The translations under genes and the position numbers were made by a program. A DNA stretch of 64,000 nt from Psammoneis japonica (taxonomy: Eukaryota): NCBI GenBank assembly GCA_008632985.1, contig QPGO01000138.1:62001-126000 (forward strand), read 5' to 3'. The notes beneath the pieces are model-generated. The model was given only the letters and a program-made list of their open reading frames with translations. It had not been told where the DNA came from and searched no databases. Positions 2,336 to 64,000 of the stretch are shown here, piece by piece; positions within the stretch are counted from its first letter, which is position 1, and each line of letters begins with the position of its first letter.

Positions 2336-3774
2336 TGCCGAAAAGTCTTGAGGCACGGTTGGTCAACGGTAGATAGGCCCTCGAGTCAAAACGCAACGGT
2401 CATCACGCACTGCGGCGCGCGGCTGCGCGCGGCGGCCTTTTGTGGTGCTGCCGACAGAATGACGAAAACCTGGAAGTGAACGTCGCGCCACAGCTCTCTG
2501 CTCTCTCCACTGCCAGCAGAGCAACTGTGCACTTCTGTCTACTGTATTCCAGCTACTTTAGAGTGTAGCCCACCGCAGCCACTCTCTAGAGCCATGGCTC
2601 TTGAGAAGTTGTGCAAATGAAGAGGAACCAGAAGGCCGCAAAAAGTTGCAGGAGGGCTCGGGGCTCCCAGCGCATCTTCTCCACAGCAGGGCAGAGTGTG
2701 AAAGCACAAAATGACAAGTGCTTGTCAGACTCCTCCTTTTTGCAAAATCATGATGATCACAGGCAACAGCACCAAAACCAAACAGGGGTTGCAAGGCCCA
2801 TGGAATCTCAATTTCCTCTTGTCTCTTTCACTGCCGGCACTGGGGCGCACTGTGTGTGTCCGCCCAGAGCAGCACCGCCAAGTGCTCCGTGCCCATGCTT
2901 CATTGCAACCTGCAAGCATGACCCCAAAAGTCACAACTGAGAACATTTCTCATGGCGGTGAGCTTGTTTCATCAAACTGGTGCCAGGCAAGAAAACTGTG
3001 GTGCATGTTGAAATTGATCTGCGGGATGTCGTCAATTGCCAGAATGGCTTTGTCTTTTTGCTCTGCATGTCATGCCTCTGGCTTCTGTTTTGCTTCTTCT
3101 TCTGTTCCACAGTGACTCTGAAAGCACTGTCTGGCACCACTCTCCAACATGAGTTTCACACTGAACTGATGAATCAAAGCACATGACAGGTTGTGCGTCT
3201 TTGTGGTTGGGGTGTTGACAGCAAGAGCGCAATTCTGAGGTGCTGGTGGGTGCTTTGCTGCCCCATGCATGTGGTGATTGCAAGGTGTTCATTCAAAGGA
3301 TTTGTCAACATGACAAGAAACCTTGTTTGGATGTGCTCATTTTTGTGCCTGTTTCTTCAATTTTTGTTCTTTGGCCTTCTTCTTTAAACACTCAATTGAC
3401 CCAACAGAGTGTTGGACTGTTTGATGACCAAGTTCTTTGGAGCAGTGCATCAGCCAGTTCTGGGTCTGGTGGATCATCAACAGTTTTCACAAAGGCAACA
3501 ATCATGGCAATGACAGAAACAACAATTCCAACAAATTTGTCACAATGCAGCCTGCTGAATCTGGGTGAAGCTGGAGTCCTCTTTGGACATCAGGGCTCCA
3601 AAGCACAAGAAACCAAAATTTAAGTTCTCTGCAGTGGCACCTGCCACCATCAAGAGTGCTGACATCACCAAACCCTCAATGGCAGGAAACACACCAGATG
3701 ATGGTGCCAATCTTGGCCTCCCATGGATTGGAAGTCAACTCAACACAACTCAAAATGTGCTCTGGAGACCACCA

Positions 3775-4610
3775 CATTTCTGATGCCAAGAAAGGGGGTG
3801 ACAAAATTTGGGTGCCAGTCCAGCCTCAATGGCAACTTTTTCATGCATTGCAAGGATTTGAGTTGCTCTCTAAACCTCTGCAATGTGCTCATGGGACCAG
3901 ATTTGGAATTTCCAGCCATGCCGTGATGATGGATCTCACACAAGATTTGGATTCCATGTCCATGTTGTGGAGTGAATGTTGTCATCTTGAATGCTGGAGT
4001 CACACAGCATGGGAATCATGCTCAGAATGAAAAAAACATTTTGATGTGTGGTTTTCAGTGTTTCAAAAGTCATGAGCAATTCTCAATGACCAGCTGGAAA
4101 GTCTCTAGCTGGAAACCCTTGTCACCAGAGAAACACAACAGCAACAAACAAGAAGCCAAAGCTGGAGAAAAATGAGAGCAAGATGAGGTTGGAAAGGATG
4201 GTGCACCACAATCAATAACAAAGCTCATCATGTGCTTTTTAGAATCTGTGTTTTTCATCACTGGAGAATTTGGTCTCTTGATCACCATGCATTTTTTGTT
4301 TTCCATGTCACTGTCCATTTAAATTTTTTGCTTGCAGTTGCAGAAGCACCTGCTGCAGCAAGAGAGCAAACCTGCCAGTGCTCAGACGTCACTTGCACAG
4401 ATGACTGCACTGTGTTGTCAACCTAGAATGATGAACCATGAATCAGAATGTGTTGCTCCATTTGCAAGGAATTGTGGTTGAGCATCAGTGCAGTCACACA
4501 ATGCGGGAACGTGACAAATCACTGAGACAGCTCATCACATGGCAAAGGATCATCTGTGAACTCCTTGGTGCTCCATTGCCAGGTGTCTCATCCATTGCCG
4601 CTTGTGAACA
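3775..4610 (+). repeat. Dispersed repeat, copy 1 (homologous to ~28085-28865)
   Basis: Collinear matches, e.g. gagcaagatgaggttggaaaggatggtg (~4176) vs gggcaagatgaggttggaaaggatggtg (~28485); tgtcaaccta...gaaccatgaatca in both. Confidence 0.9.
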
Positions 4611-5709
4611 CAATTGCATTGTTGTCCATCTCAACAACTCACAAACACAGAAAACGAATGTTGGCAACACAAAATGCAAGCGCAACAAACAAAAACAGTG
4701 AAGAGTGGTGCACCACATTTTTTGGGGGAGCAGGTTTTTCTGGAGGTTCTGGGGTGTTGGTTTTGTCAGCACCATCGTTGCCATGGTCATCGTCATTGGA
4801 AAGGCAAGTGCTGTTGTCAATGACTTTTTGGAGAACTCATCATCCGCAAAGGGGGAGAACATGCAGCGAGTCGCACTGCGGCCGGAATCTGTGGAACAGA
4901 TGGAATCGTCATCATCAGAGGATTCTTCATTGGCACCTTCAGCAAGACTGCCAGAGACACCAGATGATTTGTCCTCCTCTTTGCTGTCAACATCTGCCAG
5001 GCAAGAGTGCACCCTGGGGAGTGATCAAGGCGGGCACATGCTTTCTCTGAAGACAATGATGGAGCACCAACAGCAGCAACCACACATCTGCGGAGTGACA
5101 GGTTTGTCTTGGGTGGGTTGGACTGGTGGAGGTGATGCAATGGGCCTCATCATTGCAACAAAAAAGGGCCATGGGGTTGTGCCAAATCTGTGCAGATTTC
5201 ATCATGTCAAATGCGGCAAAAACAAAGTGAGCAGAAGTTGACAGGGTGGAAAAGCCACAGAAACATTGTAGAAAGGACAAAATAATTGCAGAACAAGTTG
5301 TTTGACTCAACGCACATTGTGCGTTTGTGAGCGAATTGCAGCTCTGGGTGCCACTGGCATGTGTCATGTGCGACACGACATGAATCACTCAATGCACCAA
5401 TTTTGATCAGGTGAGAAACACATTGCTGAACACAACAAACAAGGGCAAAATCCATTTGGGCAACTGTGTGTTCCACAAACATGTGCATGTCAGGTGTGCC
5501 AATTGTCAAGTGCAAGTCGGAAGATGAAAAATGACACAAATGTGTTGGGGGGGCAGTGGATTGGGTGGATGACAAATGTGGGCATGTGCAAATGAACAAA
5601 AAAGGTGGGACACCAATAAGAGACTGTGCAAATCAACAAGTGAGGGGGGTGACGGAATGCACGGAGAAGTGTGCCCAATGGTTCACGGCGGGGGACAATG
5701 ACCTGTGAT

Positions 5710-7000
5710 TCATGCAGCTTTTTTCACCTTTCTGATGTGCTGATCTTTGCCCAGTTGTTTTCCTTGGCAGCCAGCTGGCAGGGATTGTTGACCCAGTTCA
5801 GGAGTTGAAAGCAGCACAACTTTGAGCCAACTGGTGCAGCACAACATTTTGTTGGCAATGTCATTTGGTTCTCTAACAAGCCAGTGCAGTGGCACACAAG
5901 GCACCGCTGCAGCACTGGCATCATTTGAGGTTGTGTGTGTGCCATTTGAGAAGGCAAGGAGTCATCACAAGACCGCTGCCAGAAAGAATCATTGGCTTGT
6001 TCACAGGATGAATTTTGTTTGCAATTGTGGGCATTGTTGTCTTTGCAAAGAAGCAGCTGTTGGAGATGGCACTCTTGGTGTGCACCCAGAGCTTGGCTCA
6101 AGATGCTTTCCATTGTGACATTCCAAATGCTTTGATTTTCCCAGAGGCGAAACAGGCTTTGTGTGTCGGTGCTTGTTGATGTCAATGAAATGCAATGCAT
6201 TGACCTGCATTGGTCGTCACACACCAACAATCTTTTTCATCAGACAAATGAGCACAACAAAACATCAGGAACACTCCACACAGATCCATGTGTGCAAAGT
6301 TGCTGCTGTCACAGCAGATGCCTTCATTGTGCTTTCTCTCTTGAGGGAAGTTTTGTTGGTTTGTCAAAGAAGATTCTGCAATGAGTCATTCTCAGGTCAA
6401 AACAAATTTCAACTCAGGCATCATGACGGGGATTCATTTAAAGGGCAGTGCAATTGCTTGAGAAAGATTCTGCAATGGGTCATTTTCACGTCAAAATGAC
6501 ATCAAGCTCAGACATCATGACAAGCACTCACTTTTAAAGTGCAATGTTGTCTCAAGTTCATGGAACTTCACTGGCCCCACAAAGCTTTCATGGGACAACT
6601 GACATGAGAGACTTGCTCAGGAGATTGGGACACCTTCCAATGGATCCCTGAATGACCATCACATTGCCGTCACAACCAGTCAGCTCTCACTTTGTCCAAT
6701 GGCCAAGGTGTCGACAATCGGTTGTTTGTCAGATTGTTGCCAAAATGAATGTCACATTCATGGAAAATTGGCACACCTCCATTGGGGTTGCTTCACATTG
6801 TCCTCCATTGCTTGCACATCACATCCATTGTGTCAACTCATCACATGCATGACATTGCTGTCTGCAATGGGAACAACCTTAAAAACACTTTTTCAGAATC
6901 ACTCATTGGCCAACATCAGAATCAACAGCACCCAAAGTGGCGCAATTCATTTGGCCATTTTATGAACACCCAAACACCCCAATGATTGATGCAACTGCAG
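5710..7000 (-). pseudogene. Decayed intron-containing gene of unknown function
   Basis: Over ~6750-6530 the minus strand reads as one frame if TGA stops are restored to CGA (SFWQQSDKQPIVDTLAIGQSES*LVVTAM*WSFRDPLEGVPIS*ASLS...LHFK), ending at a gtgagt donor, with ttgcag acceptor-like sites downstream. Confidence 0.4.
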
Positions 7001-8227
7001 TGACGTCAAATTGCAACCAAAAGCAGTCAAAAACCCCCAAAACGGCAACACAGCACCTTGAAAATGAGATCATGAAGGTGCGCTTTTCTCTTCACTGAAC
7101 AAACCACCATAATCATTTGCAATGAAAAAAAAGTGTCACAAAAATTCCTGGCCTAGTTTCATTTTATGGTTGAAAAACCCTGTTTTTCATTTGGGGTCAC
7201 GCACTCATGAAACTGCGATTCGGTGCCAGCTTGGAGTTGCATTAGATTTCAGACTGACACTGGGTCCCTCCCTGCCGGCGTCAACCTGTCACATGGCTGA
7301 CCCACAGAAGCCATCAGGAATCATTCGAAAATGTTGCATGAGTCACAACTGACATTTTGCGTGTGGGGAAAAACACAAAATCGTGTGAAAATGCAGACAC
7401 ATTCCAGGTCTAGGTGGGACCTCGTACTGCTAAACTGTGACATCGACAGTTTTTTGAATCGCGTCGCATGTCGCGCACGCACATTTCTACGTGATTTTGG
7501 CAAAATTTTGCATCATTTTACAGTGCAATTGTCAGGCGATCCATTCAACAACTTTTAACATTTTTTTCTTCTGTGCCATTCTCGAGTGTCTCAAGGGTGG
7601 TCGGTTGCTGCTTTTTTAGCTCGAATTCGGCCGAATGGCTCGTGTTTTGCATGATTTTTCCTGAATTTCACCGTGCTTCACCGTGGTGAAAACAACAAGC
7701 CACAAGTCTGTTGCAGAGGTGGTCCATCTGCCAACTCTCATTTATTTTATGTTTGTCATGTGTCAAAGATTGTGTGCACATGAAAAGTTGGCAGACGGCA
7801 AACTGCGTTTTTGAGAAATGTCGATGATTGTCATCATCGTCGTGCTTCGATCGCGGTGTTGATGGTTCTCGTTTTCGTGCGCGATTGGGTGTGACTGTGA
7901 ACAATTCTTGTGTTCAAAAACAAACACTGTAAAAAACCTTGTTCAAATGCAATGGCAATTTTGGGACAAACGCGGGGATGACCCCCCCTCAAGAATGGCA
8001 TGGGGCAGGCGCACTGTCCAAAACTTCGAGTGCGAACAGAGACATGTGCACTGCAAACTTGGCCGTTCATTTTATGTCGAAGACAAATGTGTCCATTGAC
8101 CAGAGTACAAACCACAGAGCTTGCACGCAGAATTCTACGGGGCAAGCTGTCACAAAAAGTCCCACCCAGGACTGGAACCCCGTCTTCACACGATGTCATG
8201 CGAGAGAGTGATTGGAGCTAACAACTT

Positions 8228-8328
8228 TTCGGGAACTGAGTTGAAATGCCATCTGATTGATGGCATTGGCCTTCACCATGTGAATCAAAATGCCATTGAT
8301 CAGATGGCATTTCAATTGATTTCCCGAG
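8228..8328. repeat. Imperfect inverted repeat (27-bp core arms 8241-8267 and 8289-8315)
   Basis: Left arm ttgaaatgccatctgattgatggcatt vs reverse complement of right arm ttgaaatgccatctgatcaatggcatt; outer tcgggaa/ttcccga extend it. Confidence 0.85.
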
Positions 8329-9478
8329 AAGTCAACATTCATGCATGGATGGATGGACAGACTGACAGCAATCTGTTTTGGCACTCTCCCACACAATTTC
8401 TGCACAATGACTCTCAGGACCCAAATGATGTCCAACAAGCAGATCATGGTCAGATTGAGTTTAAGAGAGATGAGTCCATCTGTTGTTCACAGTGATTCTT
8501 CACCTTCAAGTGGTGGGGAGATGCGACAGCCCACATCTGATCCCAGCTCCATCCTGGACACAGACAACCACATGACACACCCAACATTTTCACCACAGCA
8601 AGAGGCACCTGCATCAATTTGAAAGCTCATGGTTCTCAGGTTGCCATTTGCAGTGCTGCCAAAAGAGACATTGAGAGGGGCATTCCGAGGATCTGGAGCT
8701 GCGCCAGGACCGGCATCTGCTGGCTCCCAGAAGTGGCCCAATGTTGCCAGACTTTCCTCTGGTCACAAATGAAGCCTTTTTGGATGTGAACATCACAATT
8801 GATGCAGCTTGATTTGAGGTCATTGAGACCCAGCATCAAGAGGAGGTTCCTTTCCCCACATGACACGTTGTTGAAGGACGAGTGGGGATGGGTGTGTCAA
8901 AAGCAAGAGCAGCGAGAGAAAAAATGGGGGCGGCTCACATGCAAAATGAGCAGTTGCATGCATGTTGCAAGAAAAGAAGAACAAGACTCATGGTCACACA
9001 AGTGACCTCACGCAAGCAGCAAACAAGTCACTGACAGGAGTGTGCGGCCACTGGAGTGACACATCTGCACACGAAGAGAGTGCTGCCAAAAGAAGAACTC
9101 ATCGTCGCTGTTGCTTTCGTGAGATTCTGAACGGTTTCGTTTGTGTGGCATGCACAAAAAATCATGGTTGGAGTGAGAATGAACGCATCCTGGTTTAAAT
9201 TTTAAACATGTTACACTCGTCCGCGTGTAGCCTGTGTTTTAACACTGTGCAAACAAAGTGATCGATCTTCCTTCGTACGTCAAGCAACTTCAACTTGAAG
9301 CCGGGGAGCGCGCACGATTGGATTGGCCTTTGACACCTGATGGTTCTTTTCATCATGCTCTAGAGTAGAGATCGAACAAACTCTGCTTGTTGATTATTCT
9401 TCTTCAGTCTGATGAAGCGAATGCGGATTAGAAAACATGACAACTTCGCTTTTGTAACTACTTGAGATTGCGCTCACC

Positions 9479-48640: not shown

Positions 48641-48986
48641 CCGTACAGCCTATTATGACTAAAATATGTCAAGAATGGCCTTTTATCATATTAGATTTTG
48701 TCCGAGTATAAGTCATTTCTGTTCGAGGTGGCGAAATTATGGTAAATCCGAAAGCCTCATATTTTTCCTGGGTCGAATCGAATCCTTGCTTGTTCCTGTT
48801 TGCAGTTGCGCGATGCAAGTACTTGTTTGAAGGGAGGAGGTGCGAAAACGACTCAAGCTTGAACAGAGCGCATATAATCTCTCCGCAGAGAAAGTGTTTT
48901 CGAGAACAGTGTGAATATAATTACGGCATTGCTCACTGCTTCGCTAGGAGAGTCTCGCATTATTGTTCGGCCCTGATCACAACAAA

Positions 48987-50806: not shown

Positions 50807-53177
50807 TTAACGTGCCTGCTGGGACTCAGAAAATGGAAAGCCGTACGTGATGCTGTCAAAATGCTCCCCCCATGCCTGCTGCCCACTCTTATTTATCTTG
50901 AAGGGGTGGTACATAGCGTACACAGTGGATGAGTCGTTTCTGCAATGTTCCAGCATGGATTCTTTTCCACGATCCGAATGGTAGGTCCAATCGGTGCAAA
51001 GTTTGATCCTCTTAACCTGTGTTTCCTCTTTTTCTCTTAGTATCTGCACAATGGACGAGAAGCCGCATTCGAGAAAGACTTTGTGGTCAAAAAATAACCG
51101 AGACACATTGCAATACGTTTCCTGAAATTTCATTGGGACAAAAAGAAAGTCAGCCTGTACTCTAGATGGAACAAGGAAGCTACCATCAGCTTGCTTGTAC
51201 GGTGTACTTCTGATATCAAACGTAACATTCTGTAGCTGCCGAATACAATGCTTTTTGTGATGTGGCCAATGCTCGAGGCTTTCCTCCAGCTCCTCCCAAG
51301 TGAAAAATCGTTCTCCGTTTGGTTTCGAAAACGTTCCATCTTTCTGTATGGAGTATATAAAGTCGGAGGCAAGTTCGTCGTCAATCCTTTTGGGATTCAA
51401 AAACGAGAGTGGCACTCTCGGCCCCACGGATCCAATCACGGCTTCGGTTGGGAACATGAAGTTACCGTCAAGTAGTGCTGTCATATTCAAGTATGCGTCG
51501 TCATGCAGATACAGAACTCCATCAATGCCAGCTACGCCATGAAACTGTTGAAGCGTCTCAGCCAAATGAATCATGGGTGAGACAAAGCCACGATCATCGG
51601 AGCTGCTTGCTATCGCCTGTATACCACGGGAGTGCAAATCATCAATCTGTTCCTCGCTAAAAGGACCACGTATGACGATGTTTGGAAAGACTTCCCTCCA
51701 CTTCTGATCCCAAAATGGTACATTCTCAAACCCTTTGGCAAAATTAAACTGACCCATGAGAACAACGTTTGGATGTCGCGAGCGAGTGACTTGGGGAAAC
51801 TCGTATCCACTCTCGACAAGAGCTTGCAACCATGCTTGCACGAGCCCCACGTCACTGATTTCAATGTAGCCTCTCTCGTACAAGTCAATCCATAATTCCT
51901 CCATTCGTTCAACTATAGTCAACGAAGTCGATGTCCACGTGTTTAAGAACTTGATAAGCTGGGAGCCCTTAAAGTACAAATCCAGTTCAGCGTTCATGTC
52001 CGCCATGTAGTTGTGCTCGTTTCGATCCTGTATAACCCTCGGAGGTAACATGGCGACATTAAGATCAACGTCCCGAAACAAAGCTTTGCTAAAGTATCCT
52101 CTCCAAATGTCACTGACACGACCAGGAACGGTGAACGGAAGTAGCGCAGCCCATAGCGCCTGGCGTGTGTGAACCGTGGCTTGGGCATTGTATGGTATGA
52201 ATGCATGTAACGGCACCATGAGTGGCGTTTCGTCGGCATTGAACGTCATTGGAAGAGGCTTGATGAGTCGATGTATGGCATCAATATCTGGATTTAGATC
52301 GGCACAAAATTGCATTACTGCAATCTTCTTCATGTCGACAGCTTCTTTCTTGAATGCTACAGAACCTTGGGTGGAATTGTCTTGAACCAATTCTAACGGA
52401 AAGCCTCGTGGGTAAGAGTTCTCAATAGACGCACCCATGAGGGGATGATGATTCATGACGTTCCTATTCATAACGGGGATTCGAACCNNNNNNNNNNNNN
52501 NNNNNNNNNNNNNNNNNNNNNNNNNNNNNNNNNNNNNNNNNNNNNNNNNNNNNNNNNNNNNNNNNNNNNNNNNNNNNNNNNNNNNNNNNNNNNNNNNNNN
52601 NNNNNNNNNNNNNNNNNNNNNNNNNNNNNNNNNNNNNNNNNNNNNNNNNNNNNNNNNNNNNNNNNNNNNNNNNNNNNNNNNNNNNNNNNNNNNNNNNNNN
52701 NNNNNNNNNNNNNNNNNNNNNNNNNNNNNNNNNNNNNNNNNNNNNNNNNNNNNNNNNNNNNNNNNNNNNNNNNNNNNNNNNNNNNNNNNNNNNNNNNNNN
52801 NNNNNNNNNNNNNNNNNNNNNNNNNNNNNNNNNNNNNNNNNNNNNNNNNATCGTGTTACCACGGACCATTTCGTGCAGTCGCTCGCCTTCTTCTTTTCCT
52901 GATTGCGGGGACCGTCTTGCGGCTGCTTCCACCCTTGAAACACTCGCTTGCCTTGATACTCACGAAATGGGTTTCCGAGAAAGAGGCTGCCAGTCGCTGA
53001 GTTAACATCATCTGGATGTTGTGTGTGTTCTGAAGGCGAAACGGCATGTGCTGATATGGGGGCTGCCAGGGACGCGGTTCTGAGCTCGTCCATCCACCAC
53101 GCGAGCGTGCCAAGGCTAAGTAAACAGCAGACCAACAGGCCAATCCGTGGAAAAGATCTGTTCCTTCCGTGCCTCAT
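50807..53177 (-). CDS. STELLO-like (DUF288) glycosyltransferase-family type II membrane protein, interrupted by an assembly gap
   Basis: N-terminal TM and KWSVVT before the gap; YPRGFPL, PDIDAIHRL, PYNAQAT, FTVPGRVSDIWRGYF after it; C-terminal LYLHDDA...ADF...HPFK region. Confidence 0.82.
52488..52849. other. Assembly gap (N run)
   Basis: Run of n characters. Confidence 1.
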
Positions 53178-53539
53178 TGTGAAGTGAATGTAGTGCCGTT
53201 GTGTTACGTACATATGATGTTGTGTGATGCGGATGTTGCGTTGTGATCGTTGTTCGTTCAGTCGTTTGGACCACGACGACAGTTACATGCCGGTAGACCT
53301 AGGTACCGTATGATACTATAGTAGAAGTAGTAGTTACGAGCTCCGCCGCGACTTCTTTCGTGATTTTGTGACCGGCTCGCGTCTTTTTATATTTCGCCGT
53401 TAAAGGCTTCGCTTATTTATTCAGACACTAAGGCAGTATCAAAGTTATTTGAATTTAAATATTTATTCAGAGTTTAAAATTAAATAATAAAAATTTGAGT
53501 TTTATGTTGTTATACAGGACTTATGGACTTTCCTAAAAT

Positions 53540-56500
53540 AATGTGGTCGCACTGTCCGTCCATCGCCAGACATCCGAGGTGCAAAAAATCTGACGCAGTG
53601 AATCTCAAATCCCCCCCCCCCCCCCCCCCGCTGCTGTTGCACCACGCCATTTTTAAAAGAGTCAGAAAGAGACAAGAGACCACATTCAATTGGCATTTTA
53701 AGAGACTCGGCCACAAGCCTTGGTCATCCAATGCAAGCTCCGCCCTTCTCACCCGCACTCGAAAAAAGTGGGAGGGGGGTGCAGCTCCACAAGCAACACT
53801 GTCGGCGTGCAAACAACGGGCAAACAATGCACGCAGCATGCTGCATGTTGTTTGTCCTCTGAGTTGTTTTCAGAAGATGTTTCTGTTTCTTTCACTCTGT
53901 CCTTTCTCAAACATTTTGCCATCAGGAGCATCATGAGGAGTTTTTTTGGTCAGCAGCATGTTCTTGAGTCTCGGGGCGCGACAAGTGCATGTCACCACGT
54001 CAAACAACTCTCTTGACTGCCCATTTTTGCTCCTCTTGCAAATTGGGTGCTTCTGATGCGATGTGAGACAATGCAAGTTTGAGTCTCTCTCAGGAATCAA
54101 AAGGCTCCAGCTTTGCAATCCTCTCTCGTGCCGGTGTGCCTGTGCAGAAGTGTTTCCCAGTCACCCAGGAAAACAAGGAATCTGGCACTGTCCTTCAAAT
54201 CAAACTTGGCAACAAATGACAAGGTTCCATCATCAAGTGAGAGATGGACTTGGACAGCTGATGACATCATGGTGAGTGTGTTGTTGACTCTCCATCCTTT
54301 TCAGCGCACACACAGAGAAAGGGGAGCAGAGCTTCATTTTGCCCGCCATTGTTGTTGCTTTTCTCAGAGGGTGCACCAATCTTGCCATCAAGAGCTTTCC
54401 TTGGCTCAGCTTGGGTGAGGAGTGAAGTTGGGTTGGCCTCAGAGGGCAGCATTGGCCAGACAACCACACTGAGCACAGAGATTGCTGTCATCTTTTGCAA
54501 ATGATGTGCACATGCAGAACTTGTCCAGGTGGAGCGCCTTTCATCTGTCACAAATGTGCAGGATTGCTCTTGAAGCACCGGGGCAAACAAGTGATGAGTC
54601 GCTCTCCAGCCTGGCAGATTCATGGGCAGCTCAGCTCTGTTGCTTGGTGGTTGCAGCATGCTCTGCAGCGGCATTGTTGGCAGATGCAGTCTCATTTTTT
54701 TTTAGCCGCTGCCAAGCTGGGTGCATTGCTCTCAGTTGCTGCACTCACCAACATTTGCCATGGACAGCCCAATGGTGTCACAGCAAAATGCAATGGCCTT
54801 GCTGACTGCAGTTGCAACAGGAGCAATGTCTCCAATTGTGCATGTCACTGCTTTCAGCAGCAGCGATGTGTCACTCCGATGGTTGAGAAATTTCTGGCTT
54901 TTTGAGTCCATGGTCTGATGGATGGACAGGCCAAGTGTGAACACTTTTTCAGATCACCATGATCCATTGCATGTTGGCTGACCAGGGTGCGGGGCAGGGC
55001 ACTCTCCACCATGAGCAAGGGTTTGCAGTCTGTCAGGGTGTGCAACGTGCAAGCTCTCCAGAACAAATCCATGCATGAGCCTGTTGCCATGTGTGGCATG
55101 CAAGCACCATTGAAACTTGTGCTGGGTTTTGCAGAAGGCTGCACAGGGCTTCTCACTTTTAAGAGAATGTGGCATTTGTGAACAACCATGTGCCAATGTC
55201 ACAGATGCCTCAAAGACAAAATGCTGTTGGCTTGTTGGGAACAGATGGTTTGAAACATGATGGAGGGTGGGGGGCAACAGACGCAGCATGAAAAATGATG
55301 GCGGGGGTGGAAGACAGATGAAATGGAAATTTAACTGGAAAATCTGCCACCAACTGCCAGTTGACCCTGCGGTTGATTGATTGTTGTGATGATGAGTGAT
55401 GTGATGTGTGCTCCTGTGATGGTTTGCCAAATTGTTGCATGTTTCAACAAGTGCTCATTCATGCCAGTGATTCATTTTTGGGTCATCCACTGGCAAGGAC
55501 ATGATGTGTGAGGCAAAACACAAGATGCAAATGTCTTGTCAAAAGAATTGTCTGTTGTTCAAAGCCCATGCAAAGCACTGGGCATCATGTGCTGCCCCTC
55601 ATCACTGGTCAAGATCATGACTCCTCCTGCAACATCAAGCAACAGTGGGTGTTTCCATTTTCTTTCAAAGAAGCAAGCTCTTTCAGTGCAAACAACAGCT
55701 GTGGCACTGTCAACAATGACAAAACAATCTTTGTGCAAGCTCCTTGCTGCAAACACAAAGTCACATCAGCTTTCATTGACACAACCCATCCTCACCAGCA
55801 CAAGCACCACAAGAGCTGCAAGTGTGCACACTTTTGCCAAATGTTTCTTCCATCACTGCTGGCAATGCAAATGGCATGCTGTCCATGTCAACTCCCCTCA
55901 CAACTTTTGAAATGCCAGATGCCAAGAAAGGGGCTTCAACAAACTTGTTCAACTGGAACAAGGTTTGACTCTTCTTTCTCCAAGTTCTGTCAAGACAACT
56001 TGCACAGCTCCATCATCAAAGTGAATGATGTCTCTTGACACAACCACAAAACTGCTCATGAAGCTGTTGATGGAAAAGGAGACCAACAAAGAAAACAAAA
56101 ATTCAGAGCCCAGTCCTGTCCAAATCATGCCCAGCAAGAGTGAGCAACATCAATCACCCAACAATCATTTCAACTCATGTTGCACTGGCACACAAAATGG
56201 AAGACTTGCTGAAAGATGTGTGGCACCCCCTCAAACAAAAGGAAACTGCCTTGAATTCTTTGACTGTGATCAAAAGAGAAATTCATGGCACAGCATTGAC
56301 TGTGCAGGTGTGGTGTCTCCAAAGAGCACAACTTGGCAGTGTGACAAATGTCACCATTTCTCTTGATTGAAGAGCATTCCACACACAAGAGCTGCTGCTG
56401 CCAATTGATCAATCAGCTTTCAAACTCAAATTCTCTTGGAAGTCATCTGACAAGAAGATGTGTCAATTTTTCTGAACTCATGGGAAGCAAATCAACTCCT

Positions 56501-57522
56501 TCACTTGTTGCACCTGCACAAAGACAGTTGCTTCCCAGCAGAGCTCAAGAAAGGATTGCTCCTCCATCAACACAGTGAGCAGTGATTGCCCAACTGAGCA
56601 AAATCACCTTTGCCTTCTGAAAGAACCCAGCTCCAAAACAAATGAGTGCTCTTCTTGCAACAAGAACATTTTGTGAATTGAAGCATGTCAAATCAAGCAA
56701 AAAGAAAGCAGCTGCAAGCAGCAAGAAACTGTGGGCAACTCCAAAACAAATCTTTGCTTCTTGAGCCCTGAAGAAAAAGATGAACATCTCTGCAATGTGC
56801 AAAAAGAGAAGAAGCAACAAACAATCAAACTCAAGCAGTCAGAAGCCAGACAAACAAGTGTTGAGTGACAAGATTGAGGTGCAGGACAGTGATGAGCAAA
56901 CAAAAGGGCAACAAGCCAGCATTTTTTAGAAAAAGATCATTTCAGTCTTGATGGTGGATTCAATAAACTTGAGAAAGTCATGGCCCTTGTGTTGGATGAA
57001 ATCACAAAGCACAGTGGCACAAAAATGGCCAGCAATCACATGGCTGTTGAGTGCTCTTCAGGTGTCTTCTGAATGGCTCTGTTGCTCTGGCTCATGTCTC
57101 TTGGTGCATGAAAAGAAGAGTTTCAAAAAATGCCTTTTCAGCTGAACAAGACAAAAATGGCCATGATGTGCAGTGGTGGGTTTGCCCAGAAGCACACATG
57201 GAAAAATGACAAAGCTGTTCAAAATGAGCCAGGGAAGCATCTGGATGGCCACACAATGTGTGACAAATTTCACACAAAGCATGGCATCACCTGGAGTGCA
57301 ATGACTCACCACATGGTGGGTTTCACAAGCAAGTCAAAAAGTTTGACTGTCAAAGAAGAGCTCAGAAACATGTTGTCGGTGAGGAATGACAAAGAGCACT
57401 CACCTCAAGATGATCAGGGCTGGAAGCTTGCTCCTGTGCCAGCATTGAGCATCAATGAGTGGTTGCTCTGGTCCTTTTGTGACAACACACTGAGACCCAC
57501 AATGCCAAGCACTTTGTTGTTG

Positions 57523-57553
<31 letters not shown>

Positions 57554-60500
57554 TGAATGAACAAACTCCTCTCTCTCTCTCTCTCTCTCTCTGGTGGCAA
57601 CAATCTTGTGTGCCAGCTCATGAATGTTGTGCTTCTGCATGAAATGGTCAGCACACACATTCATGGCTTGGTGCACAGTGCAGGAGAAATCAATGCCCAA
57701 TTGCTCAAACCATTGAGGCAGGGTCAAGTGGTGCCAGACCAAGGGTGGCTTGCCATTGATTTTGTGTCAGCTGTTCATCTGGTCAACAAACCTCTGTGGA
57801 AGATCATGCGGCTGTGGCATTGCAGCAACCACAACCAAAGGCTGTGAGGAATGCTCTCAACAAGAGCAGACCTCCCAAGGTGCTTCCTGCTCCCAAAATG
57901 AAAAAGAGCAAGAGCAGGAAGAGAGTTGGCAAGAGGTCAACAGACAAGGCAATGAATGCCAGACAAAGAACCTTGAAGCAATGCTGAGACAAGTGGCTGG
58001 AGCTGATGTCTCAAGCAACCACTGCCAAAGAGCCAAAGCCACCTCTGCAGAAGCTGCTGTTGTCAAGCAAGTTGTTGCCACAGCTGGGAGCAACACAGCC
58101 ACCAAGAAAGTGGCTGATGTGAGTGTCAGAGAGGCTGAGGCCAAAGGGCCCAATGACAGTGCACCAGCCATGATGATGATGGCTTCTGCAAGAAAAATGG
58201 GGGACACAAGAAATGCTGAGTGCACTTTGGCATTTTGAAATGGGTGGTGGCACCAAGTTTGCTGGCTGGGCACGACAGGTGGAAAGTGCTTGCAAACAAG
58301 ACAGACAGACCTTTGCAAATCCTTCACACACCCAAACAACAAGTGGAGGCAATGCAATGCTGTTGGGAGCACCCAAGCAATGTCCAGCAAGACCAAGAGG
58401 CTCCCTTCTCCTGTGACACAATCATCACAAAGCTGGCGACTTGCCTTGGATCCAAGCTTGGCTGTGTGAGTGACCTCATGACAGAAGGTGACATTGGCGC
58501 AGATGTGGGGAACGTTCAACTCATGCAGGATTGATGTGTGCACCTGCCAACCTGTCTCACTCTCTCCACTGCGCCAGCTGCCAGAGCAGAGAGTCTCTAC
58601 GAGCACAACTGAGGGGAGGCAGACAGACTGTGTCAGCTCATTTTGGGAGACGTCTCCAGCCAGCCAGCTGCTGGCTGAAAAAAGTCTGCCTTTCAGTGCA
58701 AATTCCACACAAGATTCTTCAGCCAGCAGCTGGCTGGATGCTTCCCCCAATTGTTCACTCCACATTGGAAGAAAACAAAAAACAAAACCCAAAATCTGTG
58801 TTCAAGGTGCTGCCACACTTCCACCCTGCAAATCCGGCATCAAGCCAGCCCACACCCCCAGTGCGCCAATGGGCGGCAGGGGCACACAACAATTGGCCAA
58901 CATTGGCACCACCTGGTGGTGGTGCCAAGCCAAAGCAACCAGCAACAGCACAAGTGCCTCTTGAAGCAAGACGTTTTGCTTCCCGAATGCTGGACTTGAA
59001 CATGGGGCAAACCATCATCAACCAATTTCTCAGTCTGTGTGTTGAATGGGCCAGATGTTCATCAACCAAGTCAAACAAATGTGCCTTGTCTTTTGCCAAA
59101 CAGTCGTTGACTCTGGAGCACACAGCCTTGACTTCCAGCACTTTGGCACCTCAATGCTGGGATGACTTCCTGGTTTCCGAATTGTGTCTGTGCACTGCAT
59201 CATTGTGCAAGTCCCACAGTTCTCACCATTGGGACCAAACATGAGAACCTGCGGCAGCTGCTCAATCCAGTCTTTGACCATTGTCCACCTGCACCAGAGA
59301 TCCGCCAGTCAATGAGCGTGTTTGTTGAGCAATGTTCCATTCTGTTGAGAACCTGCCATTGAAAATTTGTCACCACCCTGTCCTCTCTTGAGAATGGAAG
59401 ACTGATCAGACGCTGTGGTGCACGTCAACTGAGCAAACAATTTCTTCATGAAACCATGATTCCAAACACAACAACAACATGTCTCTCAACAAAGGAGAAG
59501 TGGACACATCGTCACACTTCTTGCACAGGCCTTGAAGAAATGTCCTGCGACATTGTTTGTCATGGGGACATGGTGGAATGTGGTGCCCATCTTCCATGGG
59601 ATGCTGGCAATGGATGCAACAGTCCAGTTGAGTGGGGCCACATCTGTGGACATTTTTGTTTGCAGGCAAACAGTCTTGAACCAACTTCACAGTGCTGACC
59701 CACCGGTCAATGTTTCTGGACATCAACTTCACATGGACCTGCCAATCCATGGAATTGAACATTTCATCAGACCATCCACACTTCTCCATCATGTGCACTC
59801 AGAGTGCTGGAGCTGATGCTTTGCAATGCAATGCTGGTTTGAACTCAGTCACAACTGACAAGTTGTTGACAACAAGATTTGCAGCACAGTGTGGAAATCG
59901 TGGTGCCAACCGCACTGCCTCCAAGCACGTTCTGTGGTGCCCCATCCCACCAAGCAGTCTGCATGAACATTTGACTGTGTGGGCAGAGGAAGATTCTCAT
60001 GTGGGACAGAATCATCTTGATGACTCTTAACCCAAATCACCTCCACTTGAACACCTCCTGAATCACAGACAAAGAATTCTGAAAGCTGTTGGAAAGAATG
60101 GAAGATTTTGTGCAGAAAATCCCAGTCTAGAGACATCGTGTTTACAATGTGATGTCAATGAGCACAATCACTGTTGTGATCCGGGGAAGCATCTGCATTC
60201 ACCATTGGAGGCAGCGTTTGAAACAAAGAGACATTGCGGACCAAAGATGAGTTGTCGCAGTGCAATGCAATCTCCAAGGGGAAACCCGTCCTGGTGCATT
60301 CCACAACTTGGAGCAGAAATCAGAGAATGGACAAGAGCCCACAAGCTTCAGCTCTGTGAGAAGAAGGCCGGAAACCAAACACTGGACCCATGCAATCAAC
60401 CAAGGGAGTCCCATTGATGGACAAGGTCCATCCAAAGGATGCATTGAAATCTGTCACTGAGCCGTCACTCCCTGCCACAGCCCTGTTGGTTCACAAAACA

Positions 60501-63500
60501 TCTGCCAGTTTGAACACAGACACATCAAGGTAAGATCATCAAACAAAGTTGACTCCCCAAGGGGGCAGAGACTCAAGCATCGCCATGAAGTTGTTGGAGA
60601 TTGGCGCAGTTGCCGGGACAGAAACAGCTGTCCCACAATTTGCAATGTGCCGCTGTCCATTGTCGGCAGTGTCCACTGTGATGGGTGCGCCAATGGGGAA
60701 ATGTCAGGTGCAGTTTTGAGGGATCCAACAGTTTTGGCTGTGCCATCACACACAGGAAACACCTCAAATTTCTCCAAGGACTGAATGTACAGAGGTTCTT
60801 CAGATGGCTCACAGCATGCTGCGAAAGTCATTCTCATCCTGTTTGCAGGAACCAGCCAGTCCCCCAGTGAAATTGCAGTTCCAGCATTCCTTCCAAACAA
60901 AACAAAGAACAAGCCTTGCACCATTGTGTCCATGCATGAGTGGACGGGAGAGCTTGCTCTGCTGGGTTCAAAGCAGACACACTGAACCTGCCATCAGGTG
61001 AGGTGATGTCAGATGCAGTGAGAACTTGAAGGAACAGCTGGCGACAATTGGCAGTCAGACTTCTCTGTCTGAAAACATCCCCAACACGACTGACACAGCA
61101 TCCATCACACAACAGCAGTCTCCCTTGTGTTGCAATGGCAGGACTCTGGATTCATCCACCTTGATGCAACCGTTCACCCGGGCCAGAAAGGAGCACAACA
61201 ATGTGAACCATTTTGACTTGGAATGAGGAAGTTTTGTGTGAATGTCCTGCAGGAAGCTGACCCCAGCACCTGGTTGAAACTGAATCCAAGCCACTGCAAC
61301 ATGTGACAAAATCCAAGGTTGACCTGATCCTCTCCAGTGGCGGAAAATTGCAAGACTTGCAAAGTTCTTTGTTCAATGTCTGGAGATCAGAAGCCACCTC
61401 CACCCAAAGAGCAAGGGCCATGTGACACGTCATGCTTGGCATTGTAGTTGCAGCCACACTTTGCAAACATTGCCCTCGTGGCTTTCCTTTAGATGTCATG
61501 AAGTTCTTTCAAAGAAAAGTGAGCATTGGGAAGGACACAGGTCACAGAGGCCAAACAGCAGGCGAAATGGCATGTCCAGGTGTCATCTTGATCCAGCGGG
61601 CACAACCAAAGAAAGACAGAAACATCATTGCTCTTTGTCTTCAGTTTGATGAATTGTGTCTTCTGTGTTCCAGCAGGTGATTTATGATGGTCGAGCATCT
61701 TGTGAGCCAAGCAAGCTGAAAGCTGGCAACTGTCCCGTTTCAACTGTCAATCATTCCACAGAGGACACCTTGATGCATGTGTCTTCATTGTAAGTTTGCA
61801 GGTGTGGTTTGCCATCATCTGCAAACAGCCATTCAATGGCATGAAATGAACACTTGAGAAGCTCAAGTTTGTGTCCCACAGAATCCAGCAGGTTGCACCA
61901 GAGTTGGTTGTCCTCCTGCATGTGCAAAGACAAATTGAAGGCAGAAGGTTGAGGAGAAGCACAAAAATCATTGACTTGAGTCAATGTGTCATTGACACAT
62001 CCTCTTTGAAACATGCGCAGAGACATTGATTGGTCAGGAGTCTCGAAATGTGCTCTGTGTGCCTGCTGGTCGAACAAGCAGAACAGGCTGTTGCACAACT
62101 GATTCCAAAAAAGGAGAGTTGCCACCACCCTGACTAGTGCCGTGTGGGGGGAAAGCCTCAGAGTGGGAACAGGAAGATGAGGACAAGCCGAGGACGGTTT
62201 TGAGCCAACATCTGGCTTCGTGCAATGTGGCACCAGCCACTTTTGTGACTTCAGCAGGCATGCCATTGCTCCAACTCTGCACGGAGGTCAACACAGGCAT
62301 GTTGTGATTGCAGCACAAGGTGTCATCGCCATTGCTGTGGATCGTAGATTTCTGAGACACCCAAATGGTCTCGAGCACAAGTTCTTCAAGATGGACCAGA
62401 GTGTTGGCATTTGGGAAAGGGCATGTGCCGCACATGCCGGGATTGTGGGGCCAACAGTGTTCCACATTCTGATCCAAGAGATGCCACTTGATTCTGGACA
62501 TCAGTTGAAAGTCTGCCTTGTAGATTTGAATGACTCAAAGGCAATGAATCTTGTCATTGCTGGGCTCTTTGAAAATCACAACATTCACAATGTCCTTCCA
62601 GCAATCACAGGAACATCCCAATTTGAGGGCACAGTTCAACAAGTTCAGCCAGATGGCGGTCAGGCACTGTTGCACCTTGTTCAGTCAGACTTGGTCTTGT
62701 GCAGGATTCTTGTCAGAATCTGTAGCCAAGGAGTAAGAATGTGGCACAAACATTGCTCTCTGGTGGCCCAAATGCAATCCAGAACACAATGAAGTTGAGG
62801 CAGATTCCTTCCACTTCTTGAATTTACCTTCCAATTTAGTTTTGGTTGACAAATTTGACACTGACACTGGTGATTGTCTTTGTAAGAATTGAGCAAGTTG
62901 AGCGGTGGCATCGTTCAAGGCCGACGTGTCATGTTCACCATCAAGCATGAGATCAGCCATGATGGTGTCCCCTTTGCATCCCAAATCAATCAACAAGGGA
63001 GGAACAGTTGGAGGAGTGCTGTGCGCTTGACCAAAGTGTTTCTGATTGTGGCAACAAAGGGCCATGGCCACCTCTTCTGGAGCATCGACAGTCACCCAAT
63101 CCTCACACTTGTTTGGATTCATGGCTGCTGGATTGCAAGGTGCTTGAACACTGCCAATGCCCACATCTCTTTGCGTCTTGCAGGACTGGATTTCCTTGAA
63201 CAGTTTTTGGACTTCCTTGGCTTTCCAGATGTTGCGGAGAATCTTCACTTTGCATTTAGAATCCTTGGTGCCTTTCATGTCTAACTTTGCAATGCATTCC
63301 ACCAGCTCCCATTCTTGGTGGACAACGCTCTCCTTGGCCACTTGTCTGCATTTGGTTTGGGCTTGTCACAGAGCAGTTTGAAAATCTGCGTGAGACTCAG
63401 AAATGATGAAGGACCCCTGCAGCTTGTTTTGCACATTACGAACTTGAGACACACAATCCAATCCGGTTTGCATCATGGCCACTGTTCTTGCGAGGACATG

Positions 63501-64000
63501 CACTTGATGCCAAAGGTCTGCCAGTTCCATGGACCATTCCGGCTCTCAACAATTCCAGCATTGTTTTGTGGCTGCCAGTGCAAACTGAGTCATGTCACGA
63601 TCCAATCTCTCTGCAAGCGAGTGGTCTGGAGCCTCCAGGCACAAGAGTTGCCATGACCATTCAAGCACATTTCTGCTGTCAATCATCAGACCAATCACCT
63701 TGAGATGGGACGTCACCTGAGGCTTGGAGGAGGCTTGAATGTTGCAAAAGGTGGCCTTGGGGAGGTCAACAGTTTGGTTGCCAAACAACCAAACAGCGTC
63801 AAAGACAACGTGGTGGGTGCAGTGGCCGGACATCACCCTGCAGCCAAAGGCCTCACACCCTCCAAGACGGGCAGCCGCCAGGGCACCTGGCATTGCCAAT
63901 GCACAGTCAAGCCTTTTGGAACCTCTTGTGTGTGTGGAGAAGTCTGTCTCACCAGCAAGGTCAAACAAAACATCCGACAAGTTGAGTCGTTGAGCCATCA
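53540..64000. other. Hypermutated domain F (CpG/TpA-depleted), extending beyond the window
   Basis: Only a few dozen TA dinucleotides in >10 kb by eye; poly-C at ~53611-53629; (CT)n tracts at ~57525-57592. Confidence 0.9.
59330..64000 (-). mobile_element. Degenerate non-LTR retrotransposon (APE endonuclease-RT-RNase H; diatom Ambal-like LINE)
   Basis: Motifs in the expected order on the minus strand: THTRGSKRLDC and SGHC (APE end, ~63935-63820), KWKESASTS..SGLHLGH (~62815), GTSQGGGNSP (RT, ~62140), WVKSHQD (RNase H, ~60030); many stops and frameshifts. Confidence 0.8.

Follow-up and report, generated by a model that had tools for sequence, protein, structure and literature searches.

The 64-kb stretch of diatom nuclear DNA analysed here (the window) raises the question of what could have removed TA and CG from discrete blocks and left the adjoining genes untouched. 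The organism is a diatom, as the original prediction had supposed. Our survey covers this one window, in which six domains had been predicted to be depleted of TA and CG, saturated with TG and CA and nearly devoid of Tyr in their open reading frames (ORFs), next to genes of normal content. Delimitation with sliding 1-kb windows and 100-bp counts reproduced all six close to their predicted positions, as sharply bounded blocks with edges approximately 100–400 bp wide that together occupy approximately 27 of the 64 kb (~42%).

The depletion is real and far beyond chance. In the pooled domain cores (24,097 nt), TA occurs 74 times, at an observed/expected ratio (o/e) of 0.045 versus 0.558 in the background, and CG 258 times (0.188 versus 0.945), while CA and TG reach 1.775 and 1.844 (background 1.15 and 1.18). 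Arithmetic on these values gives approximately 1,884 missing TA and CG against a surplus of approximately 1,926 TG and CA. The longest TA-free runs measure 1634, 1595, 1430, 1156 and 1004 nt, and a run of 1634 nt has a probability of 7e-28 at background TA density. G+C content is 47.8% in the cores versus 48.1% in the background, and AA and TT are not depleted (1.215/1.222 versus 1.149/1.155). Since background DNA outside ORFs of at least 120 aa (5,591 nt) has TA at 0.73 and CG at 1.04, the domains are also unlike ordinary intergenic DNA. The predicted TG/CA saturation (~1.8) next to flanking DNA of normal composition (TA 0.56, CG 0.95) was borne out, as was the near-absence of Tyr, which makes up 0.11% of domain ORFs versus 2.07% of background ORFs (stop-to-stop, at least 60 aa). 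The joint depletion of TA and CG was confirmed as uniformly deep for TA (0.01–0.18 across sub-blocks), whereas CG loss proved patchy, ranging from 0.03 to 0.87.

Homology within the blocks suggests what was hit. Domain 6 (53700–64000), which extends past the end of the window, contains at least two transposon relics. One is a near full-length APE-type non-LTR (LINE) retrotransposon on the reverse strand (58917–64000; TA 0.06, CG 0.27) with its 5′ end outside the window, homologous over residues 15–1957 to four proteins of 824–1966 aa (P0121–P0124) that carry Exo_endo_phos domains and weak RVT_1 and zf-RVT matches. Compared with P0122–P0124, the relic retains Tyr at 6 of 160 sites (3.8%) and Arg at 52 of 336, alongside 49.6% of Phe, 77% of Trp and 53% of Leu. 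Among the 51–57 Tyr sites per homologue, 16–18 now read Cys and 10–11 His, and a count of Cys 20 versus His 10 at Tyr sites shows that both strands of the LINE were mutated; where the homologues have Arg, the relic reads Gln, His, Cys, Trp or stop. In the metagenomes, 15 of 15 related LINE loci keep TA at 0.49–0.78, and no 500-bp window within these 15 loci falls below 0.25; two of the relatives, L010 and L013, have lost CG (0.42–0.43) with TA normal. The other relic lies on the forward strand (56977–57492) in the most depleted zone (55300–57640; TA 0.017, CG 0.026) and resembles the TNP-like RNase H N-terminal region of a P-element/THAP9-like DNA transposase. A phmmer search against 1.84 billion representatives returned seven matches (E 1e-8 to 2.7e-5), four of which reach the PF21787 cut-off and three of which match PF21787 below it, and tblastn yielded E values down to 5e-15.

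Domain 5 (46500–48580, starting at about 46600 in window counts) contains a decayed tandem duplicate of a host gene. This trypsin-like pseudogene (46575–48008, forward strand; TA 0.044, CG 0.127) was recognised by tblastn and by alignment in purine/pyrimidine space to 48972–50301, part of a locus (48972–50464, forward strand) that comprises an intact gene for a trypsin-like serine protease (Pfam Trypsin, E 1.6e-42) and the region upstream of it. The intact twin, 400 bp away and untouched, provides an unmutated reference (TA 0.45, CG 0.89). Its 47 TA correspond in the decayed copy to CA at 18 and TG at 14 sites (32 of 47), with two kept, and its 77 CG to CA at 22 and TG at 20 (42 of 77), with four kept. 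Dinucleotides other than these are kept at 27–54%, AA being among the best retained (70 of 155), and the upstream region of the duplicate is equally affected.

A dispersed repeat yields the same polarity. Copy A (3770–4592), fully hypermutated (TA 0.09, CG 0.10), is the sole named content of domain 1 (2590–9200; TA 0.076, CG 0.35 overall), where none of 17 tested ORFs of at least 100 aa matched a Pfam family. Copy B (28084–28862) straddles the edge of domain 3 (26330–28500; TA 0.026 and CG 0.13 in the core at 26400–28100, with a right edge graded over 28150–28500), and is depleted at 28084–28500 (TA 0.29, CG 0.24) and normal at 28500–28862 (TA 0.80, CG 0.94). The copies align at 72% over 841 columns with 124 transitions and 44 transversions, and 22 of 31 TA and 16 of 21 CG in copy B are TG or CA in copy A. 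Outside the domain, copy B retains TA or CG at 27 sites that read TG or CA in copy A; a block boundary can cut through a repeat copy. TG and CA are swapped between the copies at 20 sites, as would be expected if new TA or CG were re-resolved at random.

Domain 2 (19400–21550, with limits at about 19400/19700 and 21500 in window counts; TA 0.052 and CG 0.18 in the core at 19700–21400) adjoins the 5′ end of a CDC37 gene and was assigned no content by ORF Pfam search, and a six-frame read-through Pfam scan of domain 4 (31100–34470; TA 0.057, CG 0.11) found no match. Homology searches of the window's blocks left more than half of their DNA without an identified ancestor. Judged by these searches, the blocks appear to consist of dead repeats, namely a LINE, a P-element-like DNA transposon, a protease duplicate and a dispersed repeat, together with DNA whose decay hides its identity; the four recognisable elements suggest that the blocks are silenced repeats. 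As anticipated, it is dead repeated DNA that was hit, beside genes that were spared.

Because the LINE has exchanged Tyr for Cys or His while its relatives are TA-normal, and because the trypsin copy and the dispersed repeat change alike, the composition of the blocks results from mutation rather than from ancestry or selection. The original prediction of domain-restricted conversion of TA and CG to TG/CA thus finds support in all three comparisons, which show its polarity. Both strands were mutated: TA→TG and TA→CA outcomes are balanced (11:11 in the dispersed repeat, 14:18 in the trypsin copy), and no TG/CA skew by region was found. Leftover TA is enriched in YTAR, and trinucleotide gains offered a further clue to extended context, which two direct product-direction tests did not confirm. 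In domain 1, the sub-block at 7000–8100 has lost TA (0.18) and kept CG (0.87), while L010 and L013 present the converse, so that the two losses are separable. From the sub-blocks, we estimate TA loss to be approximately an order of magnitude faster than CG loss, with an inferred excess of at least ~37-fold over ordinary transitions.

These features probably reflect two processes directed at silent chromatin, namely TpA-type hypermutation and the decay of 5-methylcytosine at CpG; the target is suggested by the sharp edges and the identity of the elements hit. The first would be a TpA-specific A:T→G:C hypermutation of the Bigelowiella natans type, most likely through an enzyme that deaminates adenine; the resulting hypoxanthine would be read as G, and, TpA being palindromic, attack on one strand or the other would produce TpG or CpA. 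TpA-specific adenine deamination, one of the mechanisms originally put forward, thus remains plausible. The second would be the decay that methylated transposons usually undergo, in which 5-methylcytosine at methylated CpG is deaminated. Of the two, the TpA process would be the faster, saturating even where CpG has barely decayed. Together they would cause irreversible coding loss (Tyr→Cys/His, Arg→Gln/His/Cys/Trp/stop) with G+C unshifted.

Repeat scrambling of this kind is so far known only from one unrelated alga. The original prediction knew of no description; this holds for diatoms, for which our literature search found none, but the same change is described in an unreviewed preprint on a different supergroup lineage (Mettrop et al. 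2026, bioRxiv 10.64898/2026.01.13.699255), in which NCLDV and virophage DNA integrated in the chlorarachniophyte B. natans is reported to undergo TpA→TpG/CpA hypermutation de novo. According to its available text, mutation-accumulation lines acquired 231 mutations in two integrated viral regions, of which 230 were A→G or T→C, all of these on TpA and at ~1000 times the genomic rate, and TpA-poor, CpA+TpG-rich clusters are enriched in reverse-transcriptase and DDE-endonuclease domains. There, as here, both strands are changed in discrete tracts of non-host or selfish DNA beside a normal genome, and a mutational genome defence is proposed. On the other hand, B. natans is a rhizarian rather than a stramenopile, its targets are giant-virus inserts whereas those identified here comprise two transposons (a LINE and a P-like DNA element) and a duplicated host gene, and depletion in its viral region (TA 0.45) is far from the near saturation seen here (0.045). 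CpG is also lost here, whereas CpG effects go unmentioned in the available text of the preprint, and the measured mutation rate is that of B. natans.

For the CpG component, published accounts include CG methylation of diatom transposons via DNMT5 and, in Phaeodactylum, depletion of methylation and de-repression of young transposons upon DNMT5a loss (PMC9998398, available portions). Decay of 5-methylcytosine in silenced transposons similarly turns CG into TG/CA with a matching TG/CA excess, in repeats only, and the residual CG here is likewise clustered and enriched in GC-rich contexts; such decay accounts for only approximately half of the conversions and would leave TpA in place. Fungal RIP creates TpA from CpA, lowers G+C and hits both copies of a duplication. 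It shares with the present case irreversible transitions that wreck transposons and duplicated genes in sharp tracts beside intact genes; here, in contrast, TpA is destroyed, as had been predicted, G+C is unchanged, the intact trypsin twin is spared and one block ends partway along a repeat copy. The process would be a functional analogue of RIP with the opposite dinucleotide result.

Fast TA and slower CG loss could equally reflect a single enzyme working at two rates, namely a chromatin-directed deaminase (or deaminase complex) that attacks A in TpA and, more slowly, C or 5mC in CpG. The two losses share block edges, both are transitions amounting to loss of an exocyclic amine, the sub-blocks, constant in their TA loss, fall into an order of CG loss that fits two rate constants, and the B. 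natans preprint points, through its citations, to ADAT2-type enzymes reported to deaminate A and C in DNA (10.64898/2026.01.13.699255). We nevertheless consider it unlikely, as no C→T component is reported in the available B. natans spectrum, L010 and L013 show CG-only decay, and clustered leftover CG in GC-rich contexts is usual for methylation-dependent decay.

Somewhat less likely again is a premutagenic base modification at TpA, such as 5-hydroxymethyluracil made from thymine by a TET/JBP-type enzyme or N6-methyladenine, with mispairing or error-prone excision repair giving T→C or A→G. A strand-symmetric signature on a palindrome is what a maintenance-type mark on two strands would leave, an A→G change cannot be told by sequence alone from a T→C change on the opposite strand, and in dinoflagellates 5-hydroxymethyluracil is said to occur preferentially at TpA and TpC. 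Both modifications are, however, only weakly mutagenic lesions, at odds with the large rate excess, and our searches yielded no sign of such marks in diatoms.

The other mechanism originally put forward, in which T:G mismatches derived from 5mC are processed by mismatch repair and Pol eta then introduces A→G at WA motifs through error-prone synthesis, is disfavoured and was not supported. TpA is the preferred Pol-eta hotspot, and the TA and CG losses do co-localise. Such a process should also mutate AA, which is neither depleted in the cores nor poorly kept in the trypsin alignment, and the deep TA loss with CG barely touched at 7000–8100 argues that TA loss is independent of mismatches from CpG decay; TA loss would also outpace its own trigger. 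The B. natans preprint, in its available text, describes pure TpA mutation free of CpG mutation (10.64898/2026.01.13.699255). Phase-2 somatic hypermutation (MutS-alpha/Pol eta, WA motif) and ADAR hyperediting (5′ U) resemble the present change in producing A→G after T; each of them also targets AA, a dinucleotide unaffected here, and ADAR acts on RNA, whereas DNA-only targets are mutated here.

RNA-level hyperediting of transposon transcripts (ADAR-like A→I, APOBEC-like C→U), fixed by reverse transcription and integration, is rejected as highly improbable: a LINE is among the targets and ADAR prefers a 5′ U, as noted in the preprint (10.64898/2026.01.13.699255), but a DNA transposon relic and a genomic tandem duplicate with its upstream region are equally affected, the LINE is mutated on both strands, and the blocks exceed recognisable elements, one ending within a repeat copy. 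Equally remote is an origin with no mutator at all, whether the blocks are foreign DNA that inherited a TA/CG-poor composition, have been shaped by selection against UpA and CpG, or are artefacts of assembly or sequencing. This would suit the scarcity of homologues for most block DNA but not the replacement of conserved Tyr and Arg and the new stops, which destroyed function, the normal composition of relatives, the host-like G+C or the reproduction of the sequence by contigs from a public run. In this last comparison, run X1 supplied a contig of 3,206 nt that matches domain 4 with 0 differences; independent assembly of the public DNA run, possibly the source of the genome assembly itself, agrees with the assembled bases throughout 31012–34214.

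Six blocks of the window, at 2590–9200 (domain 1), ~19400–21550 (domain 2), 26330–28500 (domain 3), 31100–34470 (domain 4), ~46500–48580 (domain 5) and 53700–64000 (domain 6, which runs off the window end), are nearly devoid of TA and strongly depleted of CG. Together they amount to ~27 kb, or 42% of the window, as delimited by sliding windows, TA-gap statistics and 100-bp counts, and all six lie near the coordinates of the original prediction that CpG and TpA both converge on TpG/CpA in discrete domains. In the pooled block cores (24,097 nt), TA occurs 74 times, at an observed/expected ratio (o/e) of 0.045 versus 0.558 in the 33,093 nt of the window compared as background, and CG 258 times (0.188 versus 0.945), with CA (2,833 copies; 1.775 versus 1.15) and TG (2,596 copies; 1.844 versus 1.18) in excess. 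Base composition is equal (G+C 47.8% in blocks versus 48.1% in background), and the longest TA-free run, of 1,634 nt, has a probability of 7e-28 at background TA density.

Background outside long open reading frames (ORFs) has a TA o/e of 0.73 and a CG o/e of 1.04, so the blocks differ from ordinary non-coding DNA. By our arithmetic, the block cores lack ~1,884 TA and CG sites and carry a surplus of ~1,926 TG and CA, the near equality expected under conversion; CG to TG/CA accounts for ~1,043 of the ~1,884 lost sites. The deficit extends to the encoded residues, tyrosine making up 0.11% of block ORFs versus 2.07% elsewhere. The gaps between blocks hold ordinary genes, among them a trypsin-like protease, a STELLO-type glycosyltransferase, leucine-rich-repeat proteins, pyruvate kinase, a short-chain dehydrogenase and CDC37, whose best named relatives are in Ditylum, Trieres, Pseudictyota and Eucampia (66–71% identity). 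The DNA of the window comes from a diatom nucleus.

The direction of change can be read where a block sequence has a less altered counterpart. An intact trypsin-like gene (48972–50464) lies immediately downstream of domain 5, which is itself a decayed tandem copy of that gene, upstream region included; 46575–48008 aligns with 48972–50301 with scores of 218 and 77 in purine/pyrimidine space, where the null maximum is 69. At the 47 TA sites of the intact gene the dead copy has CA 18 times and TG 14 times and keeps TA twice, and at the 77 CG sites it has CA 22 times and TG 20 times and keeps CG four times, versus 27–54% unchanged for the other 14 dinucleotides. The intact copy itself has a TA o/e of 0.45 and a CG o/e of 0.89. 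Its end carries a 66-bp tandem repeat (50184–50317 / 49995–50461) encoding a repeated basic Trp-rich motif, still discernible in the dead copy with Tyr to His, Arg to His and Arg to stop changes.

A dispersed repeat, 72% identical between 3770–4592 (copy A, domain 1) and 28084–28862 (copy B, at the edge of domain 3), behaves in the same way: TG or CA stands in the other copy at 22 of the 31 TA and 16 of the 21 CG sites of the less-mutated copy, with 124 transitions versus 44 transversions. Self-comparison of the window in purine/pyrimidine space returned nothing above the null maximum of 69 beyond these two repeat pairs, and no long-terminal-repeat or terminal-inverted-repeat pairs were seen. 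A 176-aa ORF beside copy B (28824–29354) has no homologues among proteins of 309–2000 aa.

The third comparison comes from domain 6, where an ORF on the minus strand (62688–63365) matched four long proteins. By tblastn, 58917–64000 is an almost full-length APE-type non-LTR retrotransposon (LINE) relic, collinear with residues 15–1957 of proteins of 824–1966 aa and broken by about six frame breaks and 13–14 stops. In the relatives there are matches to Exo_endo_phos and, weakly, to RVT_1 and zf-RVT, and their content is ordinary (Tyr 3.4–3.9%, Arg 6.7–8.7%). The window copy keeps Tyr at 6 of their 160 Tyr positions and Arg at 52 of 336, with retention of 49.6% for Phe, 52.7% for Leu and 77.4% for Trp. 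Tyr has mainly become Cys (TAY to TGY) and His (TAY to CAY), and Arg has become Gln or His (CGN to CAN) or Cys, Trp or stop (CGN to TGN). TA o/e is 0.49–0.78 in all 15 related elements recovered from metagenomes, none of which has a 500-bp window below 0.25; as the search patterns favour intact copies, this establishes that normal copies exist, not that hypermutated ones are absent elsewhere. In these comparisons the pattern is one of mutation, not of ancestry or selection, and all three (LINE, trypsin pair and dispersed repeat) support the domain-targeted mutator originally proposed.

Both strands are mutated. TA to TG versus TA to CA changes number 11:11 in the dispersed repeat and 14:18 in the trypsin pair, the corresponding CG changes number 6:10 and 20:22, and no sustained TG/CA skew runs along the blocks. 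The dispersed repeat pair further contains 20 TG–CA swaps; each must have gone through a TA or CG intermediate that was resolved anew at random, which indicates a long-lived process. What the comparisons show, then, are transitions on either strand that depend on a TA or CG context and stay within blocks of dead, repeated DNA.

The two losses differ in depth. TA loss is uniformly deep across sub-blocks and CG loss is variable: o/e values for TA and CG are 0.017 and 0.026 in the zone around a P-element-like relic (55300–57640), 0.06 and 0.27 in the LINE (58917–64000) and 0.18 and 0.87 in a sub-block at 7000–8100. The last of these suggests a decay roughly ten times as fast for TA as for CG; from near-equilibrium frequencies we infer rates of at least ~37 times the ordinary transition rate for TA loss and at least ~10 times for CG loss. 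We consider it probable that two processes act at silent chromatin, a TpA-specific A:T to G:C hypermutation and 5-methylcytosine (5mC) deamination at CpG, with both the chromatin targeting and the methylation being read from the sequence pattern. The TpA hypermutation would probably proceed by adenine deamination, and CpG loss by deamination of 5mC. A single deaminase with specificity for both dinucleotides is an unlikely alternative. No sliding window across the 64 kb has lost CG without losing TA, and TA is lost in places where CG is not. CG loss alone is seen in two foreign metagenomic relatives of the LINE (L010, 2599–8238, and L013, 80–1336), in which CG o/e is 0.42–0.43, TG 1.44–1.62 and TA normal (0.50–0.59), a CpG-only decay in another organism.

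The bases flanking TA may bear on the chemistry of the TpA step. YTAR contexts (TTAA, CTAA/TTAG, CTAG) make up 43 of the 74 surviving TA sites versus 209 of 1,242 in background (Fisher p 1.7e-14), and ATAC/GTAT and ATAG/CTAT, with 186 and 142 background copies, have no survivors. Trinucleotide gains in the blocks (TGC 695, TGT 546, TGG 350, TGA 337) fit a TAY-directed model (600/633/267/388) better than a context-free one (477/524/385/502). Product direction is at chance (RTAR to CA 6 and TG 4; YTAY to CA 7 and TG 6), and the Cys or His outcome in the LINE is independent of the preceding base (p = 1.0). With both tests of direction at chance, a preference for the A of 5′-TAY-3′ is no more than tentative; TG–CA swapping over time would blur product direction. 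A TadA/ADAT2-like adenine deaminase would be expected to favour 5′-T-A-pyrimidine, the native context being UAC; TadA and early base editors prefer YAC. The TpA changes could also originate in base modification at TpA (5hmU or 6mA, for example) rather than in adenine deamination, a reading we rate slightly less likely again than a dual-specificity deaminase.

Mismatch repair followed by synthesis by Pol eta, one of the causes offered in the original prediction, is very improbable. Pol eta mutates WA motifs and would have to produce A to G changes at AA as well as at TA, yet AA and TT are unaffected: AA has an o/e of 1.215 in blocks versus 1.149 in background and is kept at 70 of 155 sites in the trypsin pair, among the highest of all dinucleotides. 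Repair-coupled mutagenesis is also at odds with the loss of TA without CG loss. RNA editing before retro-integration, of the ADAR hyperediting type, can scarcely be entertained, as the mutated sequences include the relic of a DNA transposon and a tandem duplicate, and ADAR-type editing affects the sense strand only, whereas conserved Tyr sites of the LINE went to Cys in 20 cases and to His in 10. Descent from foreign DNA, selection or artefact is just as improbable, given the polarised changes and the support for the assembled bases in public reads. Among the sequencing runs listed, one public DNA run (X1) and no RNA run contains the stretch; 88% of sampled words of 54000–60000 are present in X1, and among contigs examined over 25000–35000 a 3,206-nt Logan contig equals 31012–34214 with 0 differences; because the assembly may itself derive from X1, the match rules out an error of the assembler but not one of the library. 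On the points most open to refutation the original prediction stands: block TA is unlike that of intergenic DNA, intact copies of the affected sequences are not TA-free, and the X1 contig reproduces the assembled bases of 31012–34214.

X1 also holds variation. Word depth is ~33 over domain 4 (31012–34214) versus ~58 in flanking genes (25000–26000), and its contigs skip 61 nt at 28339, 84 nt at 32429 and 113 nt at 34494; domain 4 may be hemizygous, or the two haplotypes may be strongly diverged. Across 26762–28917, variant letters in other X1 contigs mostly interchange among TG, CA, CG and TA, including adjacent double changes of TG to CA at 27744–27745 and CA to TG at 27786–27787. Two origins are conceivable for these variants: alleles, in which case mutation would still be under way, or paralogues at other genomic loci; since X1 does not separate the two, neither the variants nor the half depth over 31–34 kb is counted as evidence of ongoing mutation.

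Block edges are ~100–400 bp wide and adjoin active genes, CDC37 and the intact trypsin gene among them. Copy B of the dispersed repeat straddles the edge of domain 3: it is depleted within the block, and beyond the block it retains TA or CG at 27 positions that read TG or CA in copy A. The extent of the block is therefore not fixed by the extent of homology, unlike in fungal repeat-induced point mutation (RIP), and the edge looks like that of a chromatin state. Short CG-rich clusters (9–14 CG in 100 nt) remain within TA-depleted blocks or at their borders, at 7400–7900, 19500–19600, 2400–2500 and 34500–34600, and may be unmethylated island-like patches or gene 5′ ends.

Fungal RIP differs further in its chemistry and targets. 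RIP changes C to T at CpA, creates TpA and lowers G+C, whereas in the diatom blocks TpA is at 0.045, CpA at 1.78 and G+C unchanged; it also mutates both duplicates over a tract equal to the duplicated segment, whereas here the intact trypsin copy is spared and an edge falls inside copy B. A closer parallel is the chlorarachniophyte Bigelowiella natans. According to the accessible text of a 2026 preprint (Mettrop et al., 10.64898/2026.01.13.699255), two integrated regions, one of a giant virus and one of a virophage, took 231 of the 302 nuclear mutations in mutation-accumulation lines, and 230 of the 231 were A to G or T to C, all at TpA. The rate, ~6e-7 per site per generation, was ~1000 times that of the rest of the genome and was seen in some lines only; the genome holds 124 clusters of TpA-poor, CpA- and TpG-rich windows, and an ADAT2-like DNA adenine deaminase was proposed (10.64898/2026.01.13.699255). 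The same text mentions neither diatoms nor CpG nor flanking context.

As in B. natans, the diatom substitutions turn TpA into TpG or CpA on either strand and are confined to discrete regions, which hold the LINE and P-like relics, beside a normal genome. One diatom target is a host gene duplicate rather than foreign DNA, and the blocks also show CG to TG/CA changes, unlike the almost pure A:T to G:C spectrum of B. natans; these may reflect a second, superimposed process. The diatom blocks resemble the B. natans process carried to saturation, with CpG decay added to it. In Phaeodactylum, CG methylation of transposons by DNMT5 is established (PMC9998398, accessible text), and the CG deficit matched by TG/CA excess in repeats resembles CpG decay by 5mC deamination.

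Literature on diatoms, hypermutation, RIP-like processes and diatom retrotransposons yielded no description of the pattern in diatoms, and it goes unmentioned in the accessible parts of two diatom transposon papers (PMC2806351 and 10.1101/2025.10.24.684338). The original expectation of novelty thus holds for diatoms, but the TpA process itself, reported in 2026 in another alga, is not categorically new. As far as our searches reach, the depth, the targets (transposons of classes I and II, and a duplicated host gene) and the coupling with CpG loss are also new.

Diatoms rank among the major primary producers, their genomes are rich in transposons and evolve fast, and the literature searched contains no RIP-like mutational defence in them. 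As the long-term end state of TpA hypermutation of the B. natans kind, the window suggests a process that is widespread, old and able to reshape large genome fractions. RIP limits gene-family growth in fungi; with a host gene duplicate hit here, the process may do likewise. A broader reading, doubtful but conceivable, joins the two algal cases in an ancient defence, perhaps SAR-wide, that is RIP-like yet chemically opposite: a chromatin-guided deaminase system, common to diatoms and chlorarachniophytes, would act on both self-complementary pyrimidine-purine steps (the A of TpA and the C of CpG) in any silenced DNA (transposon, virus or redundant host copy), erasing coding potential at unchanged G+C and rapidly pseudogenising duplicates. 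A natural enzyme making A to G changes at TpA in chromosomal DNA, if such exists, would be of interest for its mechanism and for biotechnology.

TA o/e below 0.15 with TG/CA above 1.6 offers a simple marker for silenced DNA and ancient transposons in algal genomes, where hypermutated relics escape homology-based repeat annotation. Pfam searches of 94 block ORFs (≥100 aa) found no transposon family; the sole match above threshold was CDC37_N, in a block-border ORF, with three more below threshold. Read-through Pfam searches (stops as X) in six frames of 53600–59001 and 31000–34601 returned 0 families, and all three identifiable relics were missed by Pfam. The searches put no name to the remainder of domains 1–4 or to 53.7–55.3 kb. 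A purine/pyrimidine-coded Markov coding model was dropped for its weak leave-one-out separation of true and antisense frames. Read-through translation of 55300–57639 gave seven protein matches (E 1e-8 to 2.7e-5), placing a P-element/THAP9-type transposase relic at 56977–57492 on the plus strand; the TNP-like RNase H N-terminal domain reaches the Pfam cut-off in four of the seven matched proteins and lies below it in three. Upstream of the relic, a Cys/His pattern in the read-through frame at ~56240–56340 (plus strand), not called by Pfam, resembles a PHD-type zinc finger. Elsewhere, a gap of 362 N (52488–52849) adjoins the 5′ end of the STELLO-type glycosyltransferase ORF. On the minus strand at 22258–23329, neighbouring ORFs with common internal repeats (40–50% amino acid identity) form a repetitive coding gene whose dinucleotide content is normal. 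Domain 6 is preceded, ~70 nt to the left of its edge, by 22 consecutive C (53612–53633), which follow an AT-rich, promoter-like stretch (53390–53540).
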